This document shows positions 3,768 to 38,859 of a stretch of 64,000 nt of DNA, piece by piece. The notes under the pieces are model-generated. The model did not search any database and was not told the DNA's origin. It saw only the letters and a program-made list of their open reading frames with translations. The DNA comes from an uncultured Gammaproteobacteria bacterium. Lineage in GTDB: Bacteria; Patescibacteriota; Patescibacteriia; Patescibacteriales; UBA12465. A program made the translations under genes and the position numbers. Each line of letters begins with the position of its first letter. Position 1 is the stretch's first letter. The stretch covers positions 5,588-69,587 of the forward strand of contig CAZYNT010000004.1 in assembly GCA_964648205.1 (NCBI GenBank), given 5' to 3'.

Positions 3768-6011
3768 CTACTGATTCAAATTAATGCGATATATTGCCTC
3801 TCCGTCCAAGAAGTAGGCCAGCTTACCAGTCTCATCAATCGCAAAATCTTTTGGTTGATTCAGGGAATTTATTTGATATTGATTCATCAGGTGGCCGTCT
3901 TTAATAGCTAAAACAACCAAACGCTTAGAGCTAGCTTCAAAAATATAAACATATTTTGCTCCGACAATAATCTTGCTGGCGCTGGTCATAACCGGAGACG
4001 GTGCCGTGGCGCCATAATCTGCCGGCTTATTAAGATAAAACTTCAAAATTTGCCCATTTGATTTTAAAATATAAATGCTGCCGTCGATAAATAAGTCGCT
4101 CGCCGCGCTTAAATCAACCGGAGTTTTAAGCCAATCCGTTTTGGCACTATATCCGCCCTTGCTAAGGCTAAAACGATAAATTTGATTTTTATTTTTTGCT
4201 AACACATAAAGGCTGCTGCCGAAAATCTTAAAACTCGTTAAACCGTCAGCGTTAAATTCGCTGGTAACATTAACCAAACTTGATTGGCGGGTCTTTAAAT
4301 TAAATTGAACAATCTTATTATTATCCCAATAATAGATGGAGCTTTTTCTATCGAATTGCGGATTATTCAAGTTCAGGGCGCCCTCGACTTCAAAGCGCGT
4401 TGAAGAGGCTGATTGCGGGATTAGGCCGAATAACATTTTGCCGCCAGACGCGTAAATCTTTCCATCCGCCCAAACAATATTAGAAATTTGCAGGCCGCTT
4501 AAATCGTTTACTTTCTCAGCCGAATCAATTTTAACGATTTTCTGGATTTTATCCGCCTGTAAATTTAATTTGTTTTCCAAATTAGAATAGACGGCCATTT
4601 GATCTTTTTTCTCCCGAGGCAAATAGCTGAGAAGAGCCTGGGCGTCAACCAGCGCTGTTTTAGCTGCCTCTTCATTGCCGTACAGCAAGAGAGAATCTAT
4701 AGAGCCTTGCCTTTCTTCAATCGTCGCCACTAAATTATTATAATTATTCTTCGCCGCCTGCTGTTTTCTCGACCAGCTGGTGATTCCCAGGCTGGCGATA
4801 AAAATAAGGATAACGGCGGATAAAACAACAAATAACCAGCGATTTTTTTTATTCAGACTGCTAAGCCAAGCGCGCAAATTAGCAACTAAGCCCGGCCAGA
4901 AACGAAAACTAAAAAGATTGGGCAGGCTGGATGATATCTTTTTAAACACGGAAGTAAGCCAATTCGGCTTCTTTTTAAATGAGAAGGAATCGGCGCGGGC
5001 TAAGTTCAAGCTCTTGACCCTGCTTAAATCAAGCAAAGGGCTCGCCGCTTTCTTTTCGTCTCCGCCGCGATAAACTTTTTTGAGGTTGAGAACCGGGCTG
5101 GGTTTAGCTTTATTAATAAACGAACGGACATCTTTATAGACTTTGGAAAAATTAATAAGACCGGCCGGCGCCAACATCCTTTCTGTTTTTTGTTCTGTAT
5201 AATTCAAACTGGAAATCGAACTATGGGCCGTCAAATTTTCTTCAATCTCATCGTGCACCTCCTGATTGTCGGCGCCCACTGTATTTTTTATAATAACTCC
5301 CAAGAAGGGAATAAAGGAGTTTATTTTCGCTAAAATATTTTTTATCTGTTCAGCGGCGACGATGGGCGGCAACTTGCTTATTATATTGACCAAATCTTTG
5401 CTGGAAATATACTCAGGCATCGCCTCCGAAGCAAATATAAAATAGGAGCCGACCGGAATTTCTCCGCTGATAACAGAGGAAAAGATTGAGGGAGATTTAA
5501 AAGACGCTCCATCCTTACCCGGCGCTTCGGTTTCAGGGTTCGAGTCGGCGGCGTTAGCTTCAACATTAATTATTTCATACTGCTCGCCGTGGCGATAAAT
5601 TAGAAGCGCCCGGTTTTTCCCAAAACTGGAAAAATACAGCTTATTTTCATAAATCACGCCAATCGTTAAATTGGTGGCCGCCAGGTTCAATTTGATTTTT
5701 TCCGCCGTTAAAAATTCGTTTAAATTTTTATTGGTTTTAGAAACGGCCGCTTCGAAAATATTTTCTATTTTCAAGCCCTCAATCTTATCTTTAAGCAGAA
5801 TCTTCTCATCATTATAATAATTATCATCAAGACTGGAAATCAAAAAATTCAAGATCTTGCGACCTTCGGCTTTTTTGCCGCTAATTTCGGCAACGATAAA
5901 TATTTTTCCGGCAAGAGTCTCTTTAAGGGAGTCCGGTTGAGCCACAAAGACATCGCTCAGACCGTTTGACTTTCCTGAGTTTAAAATGATGGGGGCGATT
6001 TTATTATACAT
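3768..6011 (-). CDS. Single-pass membrane protein of unknown function (N-terminal cytoplasmic domain, one TM helix, C-terminal beta-rich outer domain)
   Basis: Long ORF. The track start at 6017 is TTG; the first ATG is at 6011 (MYNKIAPII). One hydrophobic helix (WLFVVLSAVILIFIASLGITSW) mid-protein. The C-terminal third has recurring IY/LY-x-beta-strand patterns. Confidence 0.6.
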   Translation of the reverse strand: MYNKIAPIILNSGKSNGLSDVFVAQPDSLKETLAGKIFIVAEISGKKAEGRKILNFLISSLDDNYYNDEKILLKDKIEGLKIENIFEAAVSKTNKNLNEFLTAEKIKLNLAATNLTIGVIYENKLYFSSFGKNRALLIYRHGEQYEIINVEANAADSNPETEAPGKDGASFKSPSIFSSVISGEIPVGSYFIFASEAMPEYISSKDLVNIISKLPPIVAAEQIKNILAKINSFIPFLGVIIKNTVGADNQEVHDEIEENLTAHSSISSLNYTEQKTERMLAPAGLINFSKVYKDVRSFINKAKPSPVLNLKKVYRGGDEKKAASPLLDLSRVKSLNLARADSFSFKKKPNWLTSVFKKISSSLPNLFSFRFWPGLVANLRAWLSSLNKKNRWLFVVLSAVILIFIASLGITSWSRKQQAAKNNYNNLVATIEERQGSIDSLLLYGNEEAAKTALVDAQALLSYLPREKKDQMAVYSNLENKLNLQADKIQKIVKIDSAEKVNDLSGLQISNIVWADGKIYASGGKMLFGLIPQSASSTRFEVEGALNLNNPQFDRKSSIYYWDNNKIVQFNLKTRQSSLVNVTSEFNADGLTSFKIFGSSLYVLAKNKNQIYRFSLSKGGYSAKTDWLKTPVDLSAASDLFIDGSIYILKSNGQILKFYLNKPADYGATAPSPVMTSASKIIVGAKYVYIFEASSKRLVVLAIKDGHLMNQYQINSLNQPKDFAIDETGKLAYFLDGEAIYRINLNQ

Positions 6012-22017: not shown

Positions 22018-23238
22018 ATGGTCAATATTTTGGGAATAAATTTAAGCGAATTCCGCCAAAAAGAGGTCTTGAAGAAAGCCGCCGATTTTTTGTCTGACGG
22101 ACGCCAGCACTATATTGTTACTCCGAATCCGGAAATAATCCTCGCCGCCGGCCACGATGAGGAATTTTTCTATATTTTAAATAAGGCTGATTTATCTTTA
22201 GCCGACGGCTTTGGCCTGAAAATAGCCAGTTGGTTTTTCGGCCATAATCTGCCGCGCGTGACCGGCGCCGATATAACGGTCGAACTTCTAAAACTGGCGG
22301 CTGAGAAAAAAATAAAAGTCATGATTTTAAATTGGGAAAACGGCTTGTCAAAAGCGGAAGATATTGAAACCGCTTTAAAGCAAAAATTTCCCGAATTAAT
22401 TTTTTCCGTTTTAAACATCAGCCGCGATAGATTTTTAGATCCGGGAAAAATTACAGCGATAAATAGTTTCGCCCCGGTTATTTTATTCAACACACTTGGC
22501 TTCCCCTACCAGGAAAAACTCATATACCATAATTTAAACAAATTGGCGTCGGTTAAAGTCGCCCTGGGTATCGGCGGTTCTTTCGATTATATAACAGGAA
22601 AAATAAACCGCGGACCGAAAATATTGCGCTCTCTAGGTCTGGAGTGGTTCTGGCGTCTCCTTAATGCTTTTGCTTATAAAGACACTAAACGGCGCCTCAG
22701 AAGAATATACCAGGCGACTTTTATTTTTATAAAAAAGGTGATAATCGTCCGTTTTATTAATCCCTTACGCTATCGAAAAAATGTTGCCTGCTTCCTTTTT
22801 AAAAGAGAAGAAGGAAAAATAAAAGTTTTAATTTTAGAAAGGCGCGATGAAAAAAACCATTGGCAATTGCCTCAAGGCGGCACCGACGGAGAGGATTTGG
22901 AAAAAGCGGGCCGGCGGGAAATTGAAGAAGAAACCGGCCTATCGGATATTAAAACTAGCGCGATATTTAAAAATGTTCACCGTTATTCTTTCCCTAAATT
23001 GAAGGCGGGGGAAAATTTTCACGGCTCAAAAAGATATATCAACGACTACAAAGGACAAAAACAAGGCCTCTACATAGCAGAATTAGCCGAATGCGGTCAA
23101 GAAGTAAAAATCTGTTTTTGGGACCACGTCGCCTATAAATGGGTAGAGCTCGATCATCTAATCGAAAGTCTTCATCCTTTACGCCAGCCGGGTGCAAAAA
23201 TATTCCTTGAAAAATTCAAATCATTAAATATAAATTAA
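22018..23238 (+). CDS. Fusion protein: WecB/TagA/CpsF-family glycosyltransferase (N) plus Nudix hydrolase (C)
   Basis: N-terminal TagA-like segments (HYIVTPNPEIILAA, SLADGFGL, LGIGGSFDYITGKINRGP, LGLEWFWRL). C-terminal Nudix box GGTDGEDLEKAGRREIEEETGL. Confidence 0.7.
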   Translation: MVNILGINLSEFRQKEVLKKAADFLSDGRQHYIVTPNPEIILAAGHDEEFFYILNKADLSLADGFGLKIASWFFGHNLPRVTGADITVELLKLAAEKKIKVMILNWENGLSKAEDIETALKQKFPELIFSVLNISRDRFLDPGKITAINSFAPVILFNTLGFPYQEKLIYHNLNKLASVKVALGIGGSFDYITGKINRGPKILRSLGLEWFWRLLNAFAYKDTKRRLRRIYQATFIFIKKVIIVRFINPLRYRKNVACFLFKREEGKIKVLILERRDEKNHWQLPQGGTDGEDLEKAGRREIEEETGLSDIKTSAIFKNVHRYSFPKLKAGENFHGSKRYINDYKGQKQGLYIAELAECGQEVKICFWDHVAYKWVELDHLIESLHPLRQPGAKIFLEKFKSLNIN

Positions 23239-23242
23239 TTAT

Positions 23243-24697
23243 ATGTCATTATTCGGCAATAAAATCCGCTTGCGTTTCGCTCCTTCGCCGACCGGTTTTT
23301 TACATCTCGGAAATTTGCGCTCCGCTCTCTTCGGCTATCTCTTAGCTAAAAATTGGAAAGGTAAATTTATCCTTCGCCTTGAAGACACTGATCAAAAGAG
23401 GGAAATTGAAGGAGCGCTGGACAAGCTCCTTGATGTCTTGGGTTGGGTCGGCATTGAATTCGACGAAGGGCCGCACACTACCGGCAATTACGGCCCTTAT
23501 ATTCAATCCGAGCGCTTGGCAATCTATCAGAAATTAATCAAAGAACTGTTAGATAAGAAAAAAATTTACCACTGCTTCTGCAGCGAAGAACGCTTGACCG
23601 ATATGCGCCTCGCGCAAGAAGCGCGCAAAGAAGCGCCGCGCTATGACCGCTTGTGCCGCCATTTAAATAAAGAGGAAGTAGAAAAAAGGCTGGCGGCCGG
23701 AGAAAAATTCGTCCTGCGCCAAAAAATGCCTTTAGACGGCGAGGTCACTGTACATGACGAATTGCGCGGCGATATAAAATTTAAGGCCGCCGACTTAGAT
23801 GATCAGGTTTTAATAAAATCGGATGGCGTCCCGACCTATCATTTCGCTAATATCGTGGACGATCATTTGATGAAAATTACCCATGTAACCAGAGGCGACG
23901 AATGGTTGCCGTCTTTTCCTAAAAACATTTTATTATATGAGGCATTCGGCTGGACGCCTCCCAAATATATTCATCTCCCCTTAATTCTCAATAAAACCGG
24001 CGGCAAGCTTAGCAAGCGCCAAGGAGACGTTTTTGCTGAACAATATCGAGATAAAGGCTATCTCCCGGAAGCGATTGTTAATTTCTGCGCTCTTTTGGGC
24101 TGGCACGGAAAAAATGACAAGGAAATCTACTCGCTCAAAGAGCTAGAAAAAGAATTTTCTTTGGCGGGCATGGGGGCCAGTCCGGCTATCTTCGATATTG
24201 AAAAATTAGATTATTATAACGGCTATTATATCCGCCAAAAACCGCTCAAAGAATTGACCGAGTTATGCCGGCCATATCTGGAAAAAGCCGGACATAAAAT
24301 TAAGGACGCCAAACGCCTGGAAAATTTCGTCGGTCTCGCGCAAGAAAGAATGAAAAAACTGGAAGATGTGATTGAAATGACGTCTTTCTTATTCGAGCTC
24401 CCGCACCATGAGAAAAGTCTTCTTATTTGGAAAAACTTAAGCGGGGAAGAGACGAAAAACAATCTTCAAGCCATCGCGCTTGAATTGGAAAAAATTAAAG
24501 AGAGCGATTGGAATAAGGAATATTTGGAAAAAAATATTATCGATTGGCTGAAGAGCGGCGGCAAAAAAAATGGCGATTATTTATGGCCGCTACGCGTCGC
24601 TTTGACCGGATTGAAGAATAGCCCCAGCCCGTTTGAAGTGGCAGCCGCCCTCGGCAAAGAAGAAAGTATCCGCCGTTTAGAAAAATCTCTAAAATAG
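23243..24697 (+). CDS. gltX: Glutamyl-tRNA synthetase
   Basis: RFAPSPTGFLHLGNLRSALF (HIGH region) and KLSKR (KMSKS). Confidence 0.9.
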   Translation: MSLFGNKIRLRFAPSPTGFLHLGNLRSALFGYLLAKNWKGKFILRLEDTDQKREIEGALDKLLDVLGWVGIEFDEGPHTTGNYGPYIQSERLAIYQKLIKELLDKKKIYHCFCSEERLTDMRLAQEARKEAPRYDRLCRHLNKEEVEKRLAAGEKFVLRQKMPLDGEVTVHDELRGDIKFKAADLDDQVLIKSDGVPTYHFANIVDDHLMKITHVTRGDEWLPSFPKNILLYEAFGWTPPKYIHLPLILNKTGGKLSKRQGDVFAEQYRDKGYLPEAIVNFCALLGWHGKNDKEIYSLKELEKEFSLAGMGASPAIFDIEKLDYYNGYYIRQKPLKELTELCRPYLEKAGHKIKDAKRLENFVGLAQERMKKLEDVIEMTSFLFELPHHEKSLLIWKNLSGEETKNNLQAIALELEKIKESDWNKEYLEKNIIDWLKSGGKKNGDYLWPLRVALTGLKNSPSPFEVAAALGKEESIRRLEKSLK

Positions 24698-24711
24698 TGG
24701 TAGATATGTCA

Positions 24712-24740
24712 TTTACAGAACATCTAAAAAATGTTATAAT
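24712..24740 (+). promoter_or_regulatory. Extended -10 promoter predicting a leaderless M23-peptidase mRNA
   Basis: TTTACA (24712-24717), 17 nt, TGtTATAAT (24732-24740). Only 8 nt separate the -10 from the ATG at 24749. Confidence 0.55.
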
Positions 24741-24748
24741 TATAGAAC

Positions 24749-25978
24749 ATGAAGAATAAAACTCTTAAAATAACAATAATTTTGTTAATTTTCGCCGGCT
24801 TTCTCGGCCTAACTCCTTTGGTTTTTAGTAAATCAGGAGATTTCGACGCGGAAATTGAGGCGTTGAATCTAAAAATCCAGAACCAGAAAAAACAGATAGA
24901 TAATCTGAAAGCGAAACAGCAGGAATACCAAACGCAAATCGAAGCCAAGCAAAGAGACCGGATAAATTTAAGCAACCAATTATCGCTTTTGGGAAATCGC
25001 CTGGCTAAAGCGCAGCTTGATATTGAAGAAACTAATTTAGAAATTGACAAGACTAATCTGGAAATACAAAAGATAGAAGTCGACGGCGCCAATCTCGACG
25101 AGCAAATAGAAACGCAGAAGCAACATATTGGGAATCTTCTGCGCCTCGTCTATAAACAAGACCAAATTTCGACTCTGGAAATGATCTTACTCAATGGGTC
25201 TTTATCGGATTTTTTAAACCAAGCTAAATACCTGGAGAATACTAATGAAGAAATCGGGCAAAGCGTTACTGACTTAAAGCGCGATAAGGAGCGCTTAGAT
25301 AACAATAAACTCAGCCTGACAGAAAAGAATACGGAACTGACAGCTCTAAAAAATAAATTGGAAGAAAAGAAAAGCGACCTGACTTACGAGCAAGAAAACA
25401 AAACATACATTTTAGAAGAAACGCGATCCTCGGAAAGAGAATATCAAAATTTATTGCTTCAAGCCAAAAGAGAGCAGGATCAAGCTGCGGCGGAAATTGC
25501 GAGCGCCGAAAGACTTATCCGCCAAAAGATGTCCCAAAAAGAACAACAAAAGTTAAACAGCGGCAATAACACGATTGCTTGGCCCGTACCAAAAAACTAT
25601 ATCGTCTCCTCCTTCCATGATTCTGATTATCCTTACCGCAATATTATCGGCGAACATCCGGCCGTTGATATTCGCGCCAAACAAGGCACGACTATCGCCG
25701 CCGCGGCCGATGGCTATGTCGCTAAAGTTAAATTTGACGGTACGAAAAGCTATGCTTATATAATGCTTATCCATGGCGACGGCTTAGCCACGGTTTACGG
25801 CCATGTTTCCGCTGTTTACGTAGCGACCGACCAATATGTCACACAAGGACAGGCTATCGGGCGCTCGGGCGGAACCCCGGGCGGGGTCGGCTCCGGCGGA
25901 TTCTCGACTGGGCCGCATTTACATTTTGAAGTCAGAAAAGACGGCTTGCCGGTTAACCCGGAAAATTATCTGCCTTAA
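24749..25978 (+). CDS. Coiled-coil M23/LytM-family peptidase (EnvC-like)
   Basis: Signal/anchor, long Gln/Glu/Lys coiled coil, C-terminal LytM motifs (HPAVDI, GPHLHFEV). Confidence 0.8.
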   Translation: MKNKTLKITIILLIFAGFLGLTPLVFSKSGDFDAEIEALNLKIQNQKKQIDNLKAKQQEYQTQIEAKQRDRINLSNQLSLLGNRLAKAQLDIEETNLEIDKTNLEIQKIEVDGANLDEQIETQKQHIGNLLRLVYKQDQISTLEMILLNGSLSDFLNQAKYLENTNEEIGQSVTDLKRDKERLDNNKLSLTEKNTELTALKNKLEEKKSDLTYEQENKTYILEETRSSEREYQNLLLQAKREQDQAAAEIASAERLIRQKMSQKEQQKLNSGNNTIAWPVPKNYIVSSFHDSDYPYRNIIGEHPAVDIRAKQGTTIAAAADGYVAKVKFDGTKSYAYIMLIHGDGLATVYGHVSAVYVATDQYVTQGQAIGRSGGTPGGVGSGGFSTGPHLHFEVRKDGLPVNPENYLP

Positions 25979-26003
25979 AAAATTATCTACCGTATATTTG
26001 TCT

Positions 26004-26960
26004 TTAAAGCTTCCGGCCGTCGTGAACTCTGCGGTGGATATCCCGGAGCTGCTTATTGGTCACATGGGTATATATCTGCGTCGTCGCAATATTACTATGT
26101 CCCAAAAATTCTTGGACCGTTCTTAAATCAACTCCTTGGTTAAGCAGGTCAGTCGCAAAAGAATGGCGCAGAGTATGAGGCGTGGCCATCACCGGCAGAC
26201 CGGCAATCAGCACATATTTTTTTACAATATCTTCCACGCTTTTGACGGTCAGTCTTCTTGAAGCATTGCTCCTAGCGCCGCCGCGCTTATAATTAATGAA
26301 CAGGGCATCGTCCATGTCTTTGCGTTCTTGGAGATAAAAACGCAAAGCTTTAATCGCCCGCTCGGAGAAATAGACCGTTCTAATTTTACTGCCCTTGCCG
26401 ACAACCGTGATTTCCAAATCACGGGTTTCGTCCTTGATTCTTAATTGATCGCGATTTAAAGAGGCTAACTCGGCGACGCGCAAACCGGTCGAAAAAAGAG
26501 TTTCTAAAAGCGCTCGGTCTCTCAAGCCGATGATAGTGCTGCTATCGGGCGCTGAGAGGAGCTGGGAAAGCTGCTCTAATTTTAAAAATTTAATTTCTTT
26601 GTCGGCTTTATCTTTAGAGAGCTTAACTTTTGAGGGCGGCAGGGAAGTAATATCCTTTTCTACAAAAAATTCCAAAAGGGAGCGGAGGGCAATCAGATAA
26701 TAGTTCTGGGTGGTCTTTTTAAGGGTTTTACGCGTTTTAGGGTCGATATGGCGCGATAAATAGACTTTATACCGCCAAATATGATCCGGAGTTAACTGGG
26801 TCGGTTTTAGGGCCTCTAGCTTAGCTTCTTCAAGCCAGACAAAAAATTTACGCAAGAAACGAGTATAATTTTCCTGAGTCTTAGAAGACAGACCCTTTTC
26901 AATTTCCGAGTAATCCAAGAAATCGACTAAATATTTAATTATCGGTTTGTTTTTTTCCAT
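26004..26960 (-). CDS. Tyrosine recombinase, XerC/XerD family
   Basis: Catalytic motifs RVAELASL, HTLRHSFAT, LGHSNIATTQIYTHV. Confidence 0.8.
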   Translation of the reverse strand: MEKNKPIIKYLVDFLDYSEIEKGLSSKTQENYTRFLRKFFVWLEEAKLEALKPTQLTPDHIWRYKVYLSRHIDPKTRKTLKKTTQNYYLIALRSLLEFFVEKDITSLPPSKVKLSKDKADKEIKFLKLEQLSQLLSAPDSSTIIGLRDRALLETLFSTGLRVAELASLNRDQLRIKDETRDLEITVVGKGSKIRTVYFSERAIKALRFYLQERKDMDDALFINYKRGGARSNASRRLTVKSVEDIVKKYVLIAGLPVMATPHTLRHSFATDLLNQGVDLRTVQEFLGHSNIATTQIYTHVTNKQLRDIHRRVHDGRKL

Positions 26961-26970
26961 AACTAACTAG

Positions 26971-26979
26971 ATTATAGCA
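26971..26979 (-). promoter_or_regulatory. Extended -10 element upstream of the Xer gene (very short or absent leader)
   Basis: Minus strand TGcTATAAT, then 10 nt to the ATG. No good -35. Confidence 0.4.
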
Positions 26980-27023
26980 TACTTTAGCAGTTATTATTAT
27001 CTTGCCACTCTCGCTTCCGCGCG

Positions 27024-27052
27024 TTGACAAAAAGCCTATTTAATTATAAATT
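27024..27052 (+). promoter_or_regulatory. Promoter of the acyltransferase gene
   Basis: TTGACA (27024-27029), 17 nt, TAAATT (27047-27052). Confidence 0.5.
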
Positions 27053-27082
27053 AAATAATAGAACTTTAATAAAACAACCATC

Positions 27083-27829
27083 ATGAAAAAGTTAAAGAAA
27101 GTCAAATCAATTTTATTGCTCTGGCTCTTGGCTTATCCTCTTTGGTTGGTTTCCGGGTTAGTATTTTTTACATTCAGGCTTTTTGAATGCGTGGTTATTC
27201 ATAATCAAAAGAATGTTCCTTTTTGGCCAAAAAGTTTGATAGTAGTATCAAACCACCCCTCTATGTGGGAGCCCGTACTGCTTAATTATCTTTTTTTCCT
27301 AAGAACGACCATCCAGCCTTTTAAATTCGTCCCTTATAGTACTCCCGACCTTGATAACTACAATAAATGGTACTGGGAACTGGTCAAAGAACGATTTATT
27401 TTTGTCCCGCGACGCAAACCCGATGTCATGAAATCCGCTTTTAAAAAAATGGCTAAAGTTTTAAAGAAGGGAAGAATTTTAATTATTTTTCCTGAAGGAG
27501 GCCGCACAGCAACAAGCAAAGACGATAATTGGCATTATTCGCGTTTAGGACATCGTCTGAGGCCATTAAAGGACGGGGCGGCCAGGCTAGCGCTTGAAAC
27601 TGATGCGAAGGTCTTGGTCATTTGGATAAAGGGAGCGGATAAAGCTTTACCGGTAGGTCGCTTTTGGCCAAAATTTTGGAAAAGAACTGATATTTATATT
27701 GGTCCGACTATAAAATTGAGCGGTGACGATCAGAACGAAGAAGACGTCAAAAAGGGAACAGAAGAAATCACCCAAGCCTTACTGGCTCTGGCTGACCAGA
27801 CCGGCCGGCCCGACAAACCTGAAAACTAA
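27083..27829 (+). CDS. Lysophospholipid (1-acyl-sn-glycerol-3-phosphate) acyltransferase-like protein
   Basis: NHPSMWEP (variant of NHxxxxD) and FPEGGRT motifs. N-terminal TM helix. Confidence 0.6.
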   Translation: MKKLKKVKSILLLWLLAYPLWLVSGLVFFTFRLFECVVIHNQKNVPFWPKSLIVVSNHPSMWEPVLLNYLFFLRTTIQPFKFVPYSTPDLDNYNKWYWELVKERFIFVPRRKPDVMKSAFKKMAKVLKKGRILIIFPEGGRTATSKDDNWHYSRLGHRLRPLKDGAARLALETDAKVLVIWIKGADKALPVGRFWPKFWKRTDIYIGPTIKLSGDDQNEEDVKKGTEEITQALLALADQTGRPDKPEN

Positions 27830-27846
27830 TCATGAAGAGCTGTTGC

Positions 27847-27877
27847 AGGAGATTCAAAAAAATGAATCTCCTTTTTT
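27847..27877 (+). terminator. Intrinsic terminator of the acyltransferase gene
   Basis: AGGAGATTC-N8-GAATCTCCT stem followed by T6. Confidence 0.7.
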
Positions 27878-28015
27878 ATTTTTTATTTGTAAAATATTTT
27901 TTAAAAATAAAATAGTCCTTTAAAATCTAAATAAAATCTAAGTATTATAAATTGTAAAAAATGGCGGGGAATAAAGGGAAAAGCTCAATATTTGTTAGAA
28001 TTTTGCCTATTCAAT

Positions 28016-28043
28016 GCTTCGCATAATGTATATTAATACACCC
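28016..28043. other. dif-like Xer recombination site
   Basis: GCTTCGCATAA-TGTATA-TTAATACACCC. The stretch CGCATAATGTATATTA (16 nt) is identical to the core of E. coli dif (GGTGCGCATAATGTATATTATGTTAAAT). It lies in a non-coding zone of convergent transcription, 1 kb from a Xer recombinase gene. Confidence 0.5.
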
Positions 28044-28049
28044 TTTAAT

Positions 28050-28081
28050 AGAACAAATCAAAAGGAGCCGCTAAGCTCCTT
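28050..28081 (-). terminator. Probable terminator of the 11-gene minus-strand operon
   Basis: AAGGAGC-N6-GCTCCTT hairpin, followed on the minus strand by a T-rich tract (TTGATTTGTT). Confidence 0.4.
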
Positions 28082-28120
28082 ATACACCCGCCTGTATATT
28101 AATATTAATTTAAAGGCCAA

Positions 28121-28261
28121 TTAACTAATAATCAGCCCCATAAGATGGACTTCGGGATGGAATAACAAAATAATTTTTATAATTATCAAAAAAATTCCGA
28201 TAACTACCGCGCAAAAAACTAAAACCGCTAAAGTAAAAAATGTTTTAAATGCCCCCTCCAT
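28121..28261 (-). CDS. Small hydrophobic protein (46 aa), not in the ORF track
   Basis: ATG at 28261, 8 nt after the ftsQ-like stop. Translates to MEGAFKTFFTLAVLVFCAVVIGIFLIIIKIILLFHPEVHLMGLIIS, then TAA at 28123-28121. One TM helix. Confidence 0.35.
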   Translation of the reverse strand: MEGAFKTFFTLAVLVFCAVVIGIFLIIIKIILLFHPEVHLMGLIIS

Positions 28262-28269
28262 ATATTTGT

Positions 28270-29118
28270 TTAATTAATGAATATACGATCGCCGTAACGC
28301 AAATCGATATAACTAGTCTTATTAAAATTATCCTTTATTTTCTCTTTTTTGACAAGAACTAGGCGGTCGACCTGAGCCTTAGCCTCAACTTTAGTATCGA
28401 AATAAACCAGGGGGCCGTCTTTGAACTTGACTTTAATGGTATTGAATTCCTGATCGATTATGAAGCGTTCAACGGATAATTCTTGATGGACGGTCAGAGA
28501 ATTCGCCAGCTCGAAAATAAAATTCAGATAACCAGTTGAAATATTTATTTTATTTTTTTCATCAATTAAGCTGCCGGCATTTTTATTTTCCAAGATGAGG
28601 TATCTAGCCTTATTATCTTCAGAAACAGCCGATTCGCGGATAATATAACCCTCACTCGAAGCGTAATAAAGCTCATTTCCCTGCTGAAAAATAAAAGAAT
28701 ATGGGCGTTCGCCGACGCGCACCAGTATCGTCTTCGGAAATTTCTTAACAATCTGTAAAGAGGCTAGATTATAAGCGGAGAGGATGGTTTCCTGGATATC
28801 GTTTTTATCGAAAAGAAAAATATTTTCTTGTTTAAAAACTAAATATCGAGATTTTTTAGCTTGTTCCCAAATTTTATTCTTAATGTCGGTATCCGGTATC
28901 CGCGTTAGTCCTTCGACTTTTATATTATTAATCCGCCAAACCGGTGCGGCGGCAAAAAACCAAACAGCAAAAATAATAAATAGAATGCCCAAAACTAAAA
29001 GACAAGCCAAAAACCGCTTATTTTTAGTTTTTTTCGGTTTCCGAAAAAAAGGATTGCAGAGATTCTTATGTTGATAGTCTTTCTTTATTTTTTTTAAGTA
29101 TTTCCCTTCTCTTGACAT
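28270..29118 (-). CDS. ftsQ: FtsQ/DivIB-like cell-division protein (POTRA domain)
   Basis: N-terminal TM anchor followed by a POTRA-like segment (WRINNIKVEGLTRIPDTDIKNKI). Adjacent to alr. Confidence 0.6.
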   Translation of the reverse strand: MSREGKYLKKIKKDYQHKNLCNPFFRKPKKTKNKRFLACLLVLGILFIIFAVWFFAAAPVWRINNIKVEGLTRIPDTDIKNKIWEQAKKSRYLVFKQENIFLFDKNDIQETILSAYNLASLQIVKKFPKTILVRVGERPYSFIFQQGNELYYASSEGYIIRESAVSEDNKARYLILENKNAGSLIDEKNKINISTGYLNFIFELANSLTVHQELSVERFIIDQEFNTIKVKFKDGPLVYFDTKVEAKAQVDRLVLVKKEKIKDNFNKTSYIDLRYGDRIFIN

Positions 29119-36378: not shown

Positions 36379-38859
36379 TTATTTATCTTTAGTTAAAATA
36401 ATGCGCGCGCGGCGGCTTATCTCCGCTTCCACCAGACGAGCGTTCTGTCCATATTTCAAGCGGCTCAAGGCTCTAATCTTATCGGCCATGCCAGGCCTCT
36501 TAACGCCTAAAATCGGCCAGGTAGTAGCCAAAGAAAAGGGACGGCTCGCGCTATTGTCAATTAAAAGCTTAATACAGGCCATACCTTTGTCAACATTAAT
36601 CAAGTCATATTGATTAAAAGCGGGGGCAAATTCCTTAACTAAAAATTCGGCGTCTTCGGAGCCGACTTTAAAGCTGATCATCGTTCCGACGTTACCGAAG
36701 ACCGCATCTTTTATTTCATTGTTATTATTTTTGCTCAATTGTCCGATGTATTGGTGAGCGACGATTAAATCAAGAGCATATTTGCGGGCTTCGGACAAAA
36801 TCTGGCAAATTGAAGAGGTAGTAAAATTTTGAAACTCATCAATATATAAATAAAAGTCTTTGCGCTGTTCCGGCGGCATATCGGTGCGCGATAAAGCCGA
36901 CATTAAAATTTTACCGACCAGAATCATACCCAAAAGATAAGCATTGGTTTCACCAATTAAACCTTTGGGCAAATCTACCAGCAGTATTTTCTGCTTATCC
37001 ATGACTTCCCGCAAATTGAATGCGCTTTTTTGCTGGCCGATAATCGGCCGCATCATATCATTGGAAATAAACGGCGTTAATTTAGAAGTAATATAGGGCA
37101 CGATATTAGCCAGCGCCGCTTCCCCGCCCGCTTTCTCCGCTTCTTTGCGCCAAAAATCAACTACGGTTTGGTTCTTGCATTGGTTTAATTTATAACGCCT
37201 GAATTCTTCATCGGCCAAAACTTTAGGAATTTCCATCAGCGTCGAGCCCGACTCCGCATCATCCATAATCAAAAGCATAGCATTGCGCATATACTGCTCG
37301 AACATCGGACCGCCCGTCGCTTTCAGATCGTAAAGCTTATCAAGGATACCGATCATTTCGTTGATCACAAAACTCTTCTGTTCGGGATAGCGCGGATCAA
37401 ATTCTAATAAGTTCAAGGCGAGCGGCCTTTCAACATCGCCGGGTGAAAAAATAATCACATCCTCAGCTCTCTCCGGCGGAATTCTCTCTAAAATATCGGT
37501 AATCAAGTCGCCGTTGGGATCAAAGACGCAGACGCCTTCCCCGTTTTGAATATCTTGAATGGCCATATTAGCCAGAAGAACTGATTTACCGACGCCGGAT
37601 TTACCGATTATATAGGTGTGGCGGCGGCGATCTTGGCGCTTGATGCGGATTTCTTTCTTTACGCCTCGATAAATATTTTCCCCTAAGGTTATGCCCTCAG
37701 CGGGTATGTTCGCCGGCGCGGGAGAAATCTTAGAAGTAAGCCACAAGATATTTGGCGTCTCGGTTGATTTTAAGGGAAAATGGAAAATGCTGGCCAATTC
37801 TTCGCTGTTCAGCAAAAAAGCGCCGTGTTCTTGAAAATGGCGATAAATAAAATCTTGGACTATTTTTCCTGGGGCGCTTTTTTGGGCCCGGGAAAAATTA
37901 TTGCCATAACTAAAATTATTATATTCGCCGAAAGTGGAGGCGACGTTTTCTAAATAACGGTTCGCCTCTTCCCTAGTCTTCGCACTGGCCACGATTCGGA
38001 TATTAACATCCAATCCGGTTTTCAGATTCTTTTCTTCAATTGTTTTCACCATCTCTTCTTCAATTGCTGATAATTTTTTTGGCGCCTCCGGGATGCTGCT
38101 ATTCTTCTTATGGCCGCTGCCGCCAAAAATGTCGCCGATTAAAGCGCCGGGACCGCCCGATTTTACGCCGGCCGAAACAGAATTTTTTTGATGAATTTTC
38201 CCAACGACCTGGCGCACTTTTTTATGCCAAGCGCTACGGGCGCTCCGCACTAAATACTGGATAACCAAACTTTCATCTTTACCTAATTTAGACAAGGTAT
38301 TGATTAAGGAATTAAGAGGATCAACCTCCATCTTTTGATAAGTCTTGATGGGAAAAAGAAAGCTCTTGGTGGTTTTAAGATAAGCGGCGGATATCTGGCC
38401 GTTCATGCTGAAAGGATTATAATCCTCAACCTCGTCAATAATCGCCTCCGGATAATAAGCCTGGATTTGCTGTTCGATATAGCGAACTTGCTCATGCGGC
38501 GCGACCACATAAAAAGCGATTTTATTATGGCTCGCGACAATCTCGAAAGAAAAATGATCATGGCGCCCGGACAGCCAAGCCTTAAAGCCTCTTTCGGCTT
38601 TCAGCCCGCCAATCGCCGCAAAAATCGTTTCCCCTTTCGCGATTTCTTCTCTGAGCTGTTGGACGCTCGTTTCCTTCTTATCGTCTTCCGGCTTTTCCTT
38701 GGGCAAACGGACCAAAAAAACTTGATGGGGAAAATAATGGCGCCGCGATAAGAACCAACGCAAAATCTGCAATAGGGCTATAAAAAAAACAATCAGCGCC
38801 GCTACTCCGATCATTATCTCCAAAAAACCAGCCGCATTTAACGAGTTTGTTCCCGTCAT
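36379..38859 (-). CDS. Membrane-anchored P-loop NTPase, TraD/VirD4 (type IV coupling protein)-like, HerA/FtsK superfamily
   Basis: N-terminal TM helix. Walker A IIGKSGVGKS, Walker B FYLYIDEFQNF, downstream VAHQYIGQL. 826 aa. Confidence 0.6.
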   Translation of the reverse strand: MTGTNSLNAAGFLEIMIGVAALIVFFIALLQILRWFLSRRHYFPHQVFLVRLPKEKPEDDKKETSVQQLREEIAKGETIFAAIGGLKAERGFKAWLSGRHDHFSFEIVASHNKIAFYVVAPHEQVRYIEQQIQAYYPEAIIDEVEDYNPFSMNGQISAAYLKTTKSFLFPIKTYQKMEVDPLNSLINTLSKLGKDESLVIQYLVRSARSAWHKKVRQVVGKIHQKNSVSAGVKSGGPGALIGDIFGGSGHKKNSSIPEAPKKLSAIEEEMVKTIEEKNLKTGLDVNIRIVASAKTREEANRYLENVASTFGEYNNFSYGNNFSRAQKSAPGKIVQDFIYRHFQEHGAFLLNSEELASIFHFPLKSTETPNILWLTSKISPAPANIPAEGITLGENIYRGVKKEIRIKRQDRRRHTYIIGKSGVGKSVLLANMAIQDIQNGEGVCVFDPNGDLITDILERIPPERAEDVIIFSPGDVERPLALNLLEFDPRYPEQKSFVINEMIGILDKLYDLKATGGPMFEQYMRNAMLLIMDDAESGSTLMEIPKVLADEEFRRYKLNQCKNQTVVDFWRKEAEKAGGEAALANIVPYITSKLTPFISNDMMRPIIGQQKSAFNLREVMDKQKILLVDLPKGLIGETNAYLLGMILVGKILMSALSRTDMPPEQRKDFYLYIDEFQNFTTSSICQILSEARKYALDLIVAHQYIGQLSKNNNNEIKDAVFGNVGTMISFKVGSEDAEFLVKEFAPAFNQYDLINVDKGMACIKLLIDNSASRPFSLATTWPILGVKRPGMADKIRALSRLKYGQNARLVEAEISRRARIILTKDK

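Follow-up and report, generated by a model that had tools for sequence, protein, structure and literature searches.

The stretch of DNA described here, 64,000 nucleotides of contig CAZYNT010000004.1 from an uncultured, ultra-small Falkowbacterium (Candidate Phyla Radiation) and called the window below at its full length of 64 kb, carries a 28-bp element with the build of a dif-type Xer site (28016..28043, plus strand), which lies in a 291-bp intergenic gap (27830-28120). As read from the window sequence, the element is GCTTCGCATAA-TGTATA-TTAATACACCC, divided into a left arm (28016-28026, GCTTCGCATAA), a 6-bp central region (28027-28032, TGTATA) and a right arm (28033-28043, TTAATACACCC). Its conserved neighbour on the minus strand is a gene for a XerC/D-like tyrosine recombinase of 318 amino acids (26004..26960), here called xer, the product of which is presumed to be the enzyme acting on the site. 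That a XerC/D-family gene stands 1 kb to the left of the site had been noticed in an earlier inspection of the letters alone, to which we refer as the sequence-only reading, and this gene has proved to be the conserved partner of the site across about 190 related loci.

The same inspection had proposed a dif-like sequence at exactly 28016-28043 with 16 bases in common with Escherichia coli dif, and both the position and the match were borne out, the sequence being unique in the window. The 16-mer CGCATAATGTATATTA runs from the inner XerC arm through the central region into the first bases of the XerD arm and is identical to E. coli dif at 16 of 16 bases. At up to one mismatch the 16-mer matches once in the 64-kb window against 0.02 matches expected from shuffles, and the 21-bp core of the family occurs once at up to three mismatches against 0.01 expected. 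The region is AT-rich, and at three mismatches about one chance match to the 16-mer is expected per window, with one such unrelated match indeed seen; a chance resemblance to dif in AT-rich intergenic DNA is nevertheless of virtually nil probability and already refuted, as an exact match is expected about 0.02 times and the 28-mer is conserved over about 190 loci with unconserved flanks. The site is present in one copy in the window and in one copy per related locus fetched, all occurrences of the Falkowbacteria type share one genomic context, and no Rfam family matched the site region.

Conservation was assessed in 80 GTDB loci from different species-level Falkowbacteria and Patescibacteria genomes, which were anchored on the Xer protein and not on the site. 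The site is found in 73 of them and in each has the same orientation towards xer; of the seven loci without it, five have less than 150 bp of upstream sequence, and the other two are L065, with a degenerate copy (ACTTCATGTTATGTAGGTTAATTAACGT, at 5943) at the usual place, and L048, where no site occurs within 761 bp upstream of xer. The conservation profile over the 73 species delimits 11+6+11 bp, with 1.25-2.0 bits at positions 1-15, 17-22, 25 and 28, at most 0.8 bit from four bases beyond the site and values near zero further out. The left arm ACTTCGCATAA is identical in 71 of the 73 species and the central region follows TGTA[T/G]A (TGTATA in 49, TGTAGA in 19); in the right arm TTAA, A25 and T28 are kept and positions 23, 24 and 27 vary freely. 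Canonical dif likewise has a conserved A25 and variable positions 23 and 24 (PMC2731167). Alignment of the orthologous regions, which had been suggested as a check, thus reveals the element as an island of conservation in unconserved non-coding flanks over about 190 related loci.

The recombinase beside the site combines the Pfam Phage_integrase domain (9e-41) with an N-terminal SAM-like domain. Its best solved relative is E. coli XerD (1a0p, 127 bits), against which the catalytic residues R..K..HxxR..H..Y are aligned and intact; the XerD 'QRAQQ' stretch is not kept in this alignment, at most a weak hint on FtsK activation. There are thousands of close homologues, and those that are named are ascribed to Patescibacteria or Candidatus Falkowbacteria. 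Orthologues with 67-100% identity stand beside the site in 73 of the 80 genomes and, among the matches listed, in 78 of 81 metagenome contigs, and over the 73 genomes the site lies upstream of the xer start at a median distance of 123 bp. A scan of metagenomes with the 21-bp core (ACTTCGCATAATGTAKATTAA) retrieved at least 120 contigs with one site each; among the matches listed, xer, on the expected strand, adjoins 78 of the 81 occurrences whose xer-side flank measures at least 1.3 kb, and 74 of the 79 contigs with at least 1.3 kb of opposite flank have an FtsQ-like gene 220-600 bp from the site. The usual order, all on one strand, is an operon (dnaX, serS, alr, the FtsQ-like gene and a small peptide), its terminator, the site and xer.

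About 1 kb separates the site from xer in the window, L002, L007, L013 and L046, yet the site is intact, the gap being filled by an opposing acyltransferase gene in the window and L013 and by other genes in L002, L007 and L046. Differing and unrelated small genes occupy the spacer between xer and the left arm (26961-28015 in the window) in L002, L007, L024, L025, L029, L046, L068, L070, L074 and L075, and the spacer looks like an insertion hot spot. In the window and in 28 loci, the stretch from xer to the inserted genes was found to contain no decayed attL or other decayed second site, and an origin of these variable genes as old Xer-exploiting elements was rejected for that reason. At the xer start codon of L068 (1243), L075 (5891) and L079 (5973) there are lone inverted copies of the left arm (ACTTCGCATAATAT), with the full site 470-1100 bp further upstream; these copies may serve xer autoregulation or be a promoter element. 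In other chromosomal contexts, at 28-31% GC, the palindromic 28-mer ACTTCGCATAATGTAGATTAAGCGAAGT was encountered in L156 (6218), L209 (13166) and L206 (58), where the neighbours are cvpA-metG, a UvrD-like helicase gene and ATP synthase genes and no xer is near. The site therefore occurs beyond the lineage in which it is linked to xer, and not every site has this linkage.

These arrangements bear on whether the element serves something other than dimer resolution, mainly as an operator for control of the xer promoter by Xer itself or as a mere phage attachment site in the xer upstream region. Most relatives have the site 50-150 bp upstream of the xer start codon, in the likely promoter region, and such a role would agree with the lone inverted left-arm copies at the xer start in L068, L075 and L079 and with the absence of a composition switch at the site. 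We nonetheless judge it most improbable, given that a full two-arm architecture with a 6-bp spacer is kept, beyond what a binding half-site would need, that the site remains intact about 1 kb from xer with other genes between them in the window and in L002, L007, L013 and L046, that the same palindromic site exists without a nearby xer in the low-GC loci L156, L206 and L209, and that a host is not expected to hold an attachment site invariant for the benefit of phages.

Use of the site in recombination is documented by relatives in which it is occupied. In L003 and L070 an insert of about 5 kb stands between the end of the operon and xer, exactly at the site, and represents a filamentous-phage-like prophage (812-5888 in L003, 67-5425 in L070) bounded by hybrid attL and attR at the dif site. 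Both inserts encode, according to PHROGs, a Zot/pI-type morphogenesis ATPase, a large open reading frame resembling adsorption proteins and coat-like peptides, to which L070 adds a rolling-circle Rep; an integrase is encoded in neither insert. The xer-proximal junction consists of the left part of dif, TGTATA and TTAAGCGAAGT (L003) or TTATGCGAAGT (L070), the distal junction of GTGTTTAAAAG (L003) or GGGTTTGAAAA (L070), TGTATA and the native right arm, and the outer flanks align with the uninterrupted relatives L015 and L074. The prophage junctions place the crossover within TGTATATTAA. Such hybrid junctions are the classic signature of an integrative element that exploits Xer, and the site thus recombines in vivo in relatives as an attachment site for integrase-less phages. 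The attP deduced from the junctions would carry a copy of the strong (left) arm of the host on the weak-arm side, as a consequence of which integration creates one palindromic junction and one junction of two weak arms. L003 has in addition a second, phage-internal site about 40 bp from attL (AACAAAAACCA-TCGACA-TTATGCGAAGT). The suggestion that Xer-exploiting elements use such a site has accordingly found its confirmation in relatives, by two independent prophage insertions; the window itself contains no Xer-exploiting element. Candidate Phyla Radiation hosts of inoviruses have been reported before, in a publication whose main text makes no mention of XerC (PMC6813254).

Beyond filamentous phages, a scan with a 17-base pattern returned 18 viral contigs, a number of an order that by our own estimate chance alone could give. 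Only five terminase-bearing contigs, which have independent support, were kept, four of them related and with a syntenic site and the fifth being L083, and L095, L084, L085 and the remaining viral matches were set aside as possibly fortuitous; the Zot and Rep proteins known from L003 and L070 recur in none of them. In L082 (about 1792-1819), L087 (433-460), L088 (1156-1183) and L096 (6359-6386) a variable arm is followed by TGTATA-TTATGCGAAGT, in syntenic position beside the terminase genes, and L083 (about 2781-2808) has a full palindromic site. The terminase large subunit was confirmed by PHROGs in L082, L083, L087 and L088 and the small subunit in L087; the homologue in L096 matched only a family of unknown function. 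On the fetched parts of the five tailed-phage contigs no recombinase was found, and their sites could function as attP in Xer-dependent integration or else resolve the multimers of phage-plasmids. As a separate observation, 9 of 59 whole metagenome contigs end less than 100 bp from the site (L107, L114, L127, L132, L134, L136, L138, L153 and L159) against 3.5 expected (p about 0.007), an excess which suggests assembly breaks caused by population variants with occupied or empty sites.

The native sites of relatives form a series in the right arm when ordered by the identity of their recombinase to that of the window. With Xer at 67-72% identity, relatives carry ACTTCGCATAA-TGTAGA-TTAAGCGAAGT as their native site, a near-perfect palindrome; at 72-78% identity the right arm is mostly TTAATTAACGT, and at 78% or above it is TTAATACACCT or a close variant, with TGTATA in the centre. 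From the near-palindromic sites it follows that both arms can be read by one protein. Linkage of gene and site has been considered a possible hallmark of single-recombinase Xer systems, and the XerS and XerH systems have a strong arm along with a weak, cooperatively bound one (PMC5357621). The arm pattern observed here would fit one protein that reads a strong arm and a weak, cooperatively bound arm in this manner, and a single recombinase on both arms appears likelier than a XerC/XerD pair.

The pair, in the form of a canonical two-recombinase dif with the adjacent Xer as XerC on the left arm and an unlinked XerD-like paralog binding the right arm TTAATACACC[C/T], is possible and at the same time doubtful. 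It would account for the strong asymmetry of the site in the clade of the window, for a left arm and central region that are identical to the XerC side of E. coli dif, and for the marginally higher score of Xer on the XerC than on the XerD model. In L137 (798) and L197 (400), metagenome contigs of 56-62% GC, the same left arm and central region are moreover followed by a right arm of the canonical XerD type (TTAAGTTAAAT or TTAAGTCAAAT), a combination that places the left arm in the ordinary XerC-arm repertoire of other phyla. On the other hand, a phmmer search with Xer against all open reading frames found no second tyrosine recombinase in the 64-kb window nor in any related locus fetched (6-13 kb flanks), and in related lineages the orthologous xer genes adjoin sites that are almost perfect palindromes. 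Even where Xer is at least 80% identical, five positions of the right arm vary between genomes; of the two arms in XerCD systems, the XerD arm is the one with the higher conservation (PMC2731167). A phage attP which puts a copy of the left arm into the right-arm position is hard to square with an arm specific for XerD.

We interpret the 28-bp element, with a probability of about 0.8, as the chromosomal Xer site (dif) of this Falkowbacterium, which forms a conserved module with the adjacent xer gene, is probably served by a single recombinase, functions in dimer resolution and is exploited by phages. In its architecture, its conservation and, in relatives, its use in recombination, it is a dif-type site in the general sense; the role in dimer resolution, the single-recombinase mode and the binding hierarchy are deduced from the family. 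By this mechanism Xer monomers would bind the strong, invariant left arm ACTTCGCATAA and, with cooperativity, also the right arm, which is weak and evolves fast; the two sites of a chromosome dimer would synapse, and ordered strand exchanges flanking the 6-bp TGTATA would resolve the dimer to monomers, with the arm asymmetry fixing the order of cleavage.

A number of observations, on the sequence of the site, on the scores of the recombinase and on the strand composition around both, weigh against this interpretation. The right arm TTAATACACCC agrees with the canonical XerD arm (TTATGTTAAAT-like) at 5 of 11 positions only, a departure which the sequence-only reading had rightly pointed out, and the right arm is the less conserved one, opposite to the situation in canonical dif. 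In the window copy, position 1 (28016) is G against A in 73 of 73 relatives, and position 28 (28043) is C against T in 70 of 73; the same G1/C28 variant is present in L001, an independent sample, and is therefore not a sequencing error. The predicted protein of 26004-26960 is Xer-like without assignment to one of the families and stays below four curated cut-offs, with 225.6 bits on the NCBIfam XerC model (cut-off 335.15), 222 bits on NCBIfam XerD (329.6), 192.2 bits on XerA (220) and 115.5 bits on XerS (267).

As to strand composition, a skew inflection near 28 kb had been anticipated and did not materialize. Plotted cumulatively, raw GC skew declines from one end of the window to the other, apart from a slight local rise at 22-28 kb, a part with plus-strand genes; since raw GC skew is confounded by gene orientation, it was replaced by skews at 4-fold sites and third positions, split by strand and side. 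The plus-strand excess of third-position AT (AT3) is +0.141 left of the site (p<0.0001) and +0.096 right of it (p=0.0014), that of third-position GC (GC3) -0.065 (p=0.007) and -0.072 (p=0.004), in both cases of the same sign and similar size on the two sides, and the 4-fold-site skews likewise keep their sign across the site. The whole 64 kb behave as a single replichore, and the common sign implies that the nearest switch lies over 28 kb away on the left or over 36 kb away on the right. For Proteobacteria, the median distance from dif to the skew peak is 7.3 kb, with the third quartile at 21 kb and outliers as far out as 200 kb (PMC2731167); the distance found here lies beyond this interquartile range and is unusual, not unprecedented. 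Gene orientation does shift at the site: to its left about 60% is plus-strand, to its right about 81% is minus-strand. The shift mildly favours a terminus and is a weaker indicator than skew. For the skew pooled over the 80 loci, there are almost no opposite-strand genes within 6 kb on the operon side. No dnaA was found near the module by phmmer with E. coli DnaA against all open reading frames of the window and 219 loci, and in the two complete chromosomes of the locus set xer is located, in record coordinates, near 85 kb of 896 kb (OW818634.1) and near 204 kb of 977 kb (CP066698.1), the site itself being near 85.0 kb of 895,742 bp and near 203.6 kb of 977,025 bp, respectively.

The gap in which the site resides is bordered on the left by the acyltransferase gene (27083..27829, plus strand, Pfam PF01553), which lies between xer and the site and is followed by its own intrinsic terminator (27847..27872, plus strand, 10-bp stem and T-run), and on the right by the minus-strand operon. 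The last gene of the operon is an open reading frame for a hydrophobic peptide of 46 amino acids (28121..28261, minus strand), which is part of the conserved flank of the site, with the FtsQ-like gene (28270-29118) upstream of it in the operon; the intrinsic terminator hairpin of the operon (28062..28081, minus strand, 8-bp stem and T-rich tail) is 18 bp away from the site, and a comparable hairpin adjoins the site in most relatives. A homologue of the acyltransferase gene occupies the xer-site gap only in the window, L001 and L013, with no gene or unrelated small genes in the other genomes, and its insertion, by this distribution lineage-specific and external to the module, is the cause of the 1,055-bp gap between xer and site in the window. 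The sequence-only reading had described plus-strand genes (22018-27829) which meet the minus-strand operon; this run is broken by xer, which is on the minus strand. Convergent transcription cannot be upheld as a feature of the element, as most relatives place the site between the operon terminator and a co-directional xer and the convergent acyltransferase gene is limited to the window, L001 and L013; the convergence is thus accidental and peculiar to this lineage. Further within the operon, an ATPase of 826 amino acids (36379-38859, minus strand) matches only the P-loop region of TraD/TrwB-type coupling proteins of the FtsK/HerA superfamily; as a candidate FtsK it was rejected on account of these matches, and no FtsK was found in the 64-kb window.

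Adjacent to the site, a partial duplicate had also been described, which exists, its coordinates having been given one base too high. It extends over 28082..28104 on the plus strand and consists of ATACACCC (28082-28089), GCC and TGTATATTAATA (28093-28104), so that the tail of the right arm precedes, in scrambled order, the central region with half an arm, and the invariant left arm is missing. Each of the two words occurs exactly twice in 64 kb, both times on the same strand and within 90 bp, which speaks for a local duplication and not for chance. The duplicate is placed in the 3' untranslated end of the operon, between stop codon and terminator, the hairpin thus standing between it and the site, and overlaps an AT-rich palindrome (28090-28117). 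It was found in no relative, including the closest ones and those with the same right arm, and the traits of the prophage junctions of relatives are all missing from it. The two copies, 66 bp apart in the window, enclose the operon terminator only, with no foreign DNA between them.

Site and duplicate might be taken for the attL and the decayed attR of a former Xer-exploiting element that has been deleted nearly in full, considering that both the 12-mer and the 8-mer have a second copy within 90 bp but none in the rest of the 64 kb and that elements which integrate here in relatives leave a distal foreign left arm followed by TGTATA and the native right arm. Such a history is unlikely: the proximal site has the native and not a phage-type right arm, the distal copy is scrambled and its left part ATACACCCGCC is unlike any phage arm seen, the operon terminator, the only feature between the copies, is at the same place in relatives without the duplicate, and the copy is absent from all relatives. 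The duplicate is regarded as a private local rearrangement, probably without function.

The literature searched holds nothing that pairs Patescibacteria with dif, Xer or chromosome dimer resolution, and within it the module is the first concrete Xer/dif site with partner gene found for a Candidate Phyla Radiation lineage; the kind of site is in itself familiar as one that unlinks chromosome dimers and is hijacked by phages. In practical terms, the 21-bp signature ACTTCGCATAATGTAKATTAA locates the site in metagenomic contigs, and the site explains how integrase-less phages integrate into these reduced genomes. The natural series from palindromic to strongly asymmetric sites beside one orthologous recombinase gives access to the evolution of arm asymmetry and of the order of strand exchange. 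Very tentatively, a wider picture can be drawn, in which Falkowbacteria and perhaps many Patescibacteria would use a single XerC/D-like recombinase beside a classical-type dif which is off-terminus and so, like XerA, independent of FtsK, with one arm decaying from a palindrome to a minimal weak arm and with the site as a common dock for integrase-less filamentous and tailed phages whose attP mimics the strong arm. If the off-terminus position is true on complete genomes, dimer resolution would be uncoupled from termination, which is unusual for bacteria; if not, the site is an ordinary dif site in an under-studied phylum.

Among the known systems, XerCD/dif of E. coli and most bacteria shares with the module the 28-bp length with 11-bp arms and a 6-bp central region, the identical central TGTATA and inner XerC arm CGCATAA, the conserved A25 with variable positions 23 and 24, the intergenic, AT-rich location in single copy in the sequence examined, the exploitation by integrase-less phages and a recombinase to which the one found here is closest. 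It differs in that the right arm here has 5 of 11 positions in common with the XerD arm and is the less conserved one, that the recombinase gene is linked to the site with one Xer seen locally, that no strand-composition switch occurs at the site within 64 kb and that the recombinase stays below the XerC and XerD cut-offs. The systems XerS/difSL of streptococci and lactococci and XerH/difH of Helicobacter and Campylobacter resemble the module in the recombinase gene that adjoins the site and in a near-palindromic site with a stronger and a weaker arm, an asymmetry by which binding and the order of cleavage are biased in both systems (PMC5357621). In contrast to these, the Xer described here is neither XerS nor XerH, matches only weakly (115 bits on XerS against a cut-off of 267, 55 bits on XerH in the PDB) and has 318 amino acids compared with about 355, and the site is of the classical dif type with 28 bp and a 6-bp spacer, unlike the 31-bp difSL with its 11-bp spacer.

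Archaeal XerA/dif is similar in combining a single recombinase of XerC/D size with a conserved 28-bp dif and its 6-bp central region, one Xer being seen locally in the present case, and XerA models and structures (192 bits; 4a8e, 5hxy) are the next best matches after XerC/D; the archaeal system has been reported as FtsK-independent (PMC5357621), and the module differs from it by its bacterial host and by an Xer below the XerA cut-off of 220 bits. With CTXphi, VGJphi, TLCphi and the gonococcal genetic island, the inserts at the site in L003 and L070 have in common that they are integrase-less, filamentous-phage-like elements, and, like the attP described for TLCphi and the gonococcal island, theirs agrees with dif in the central region and in one good arm, the other arm being divergent (PMC5357621). 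What sets the elements of L003 and L070 apart from these Xer-exploiting elements is the Candidate Phyla Radiation host and an attP in which the good arm is a copy of the left arm of the host placed on the right side.

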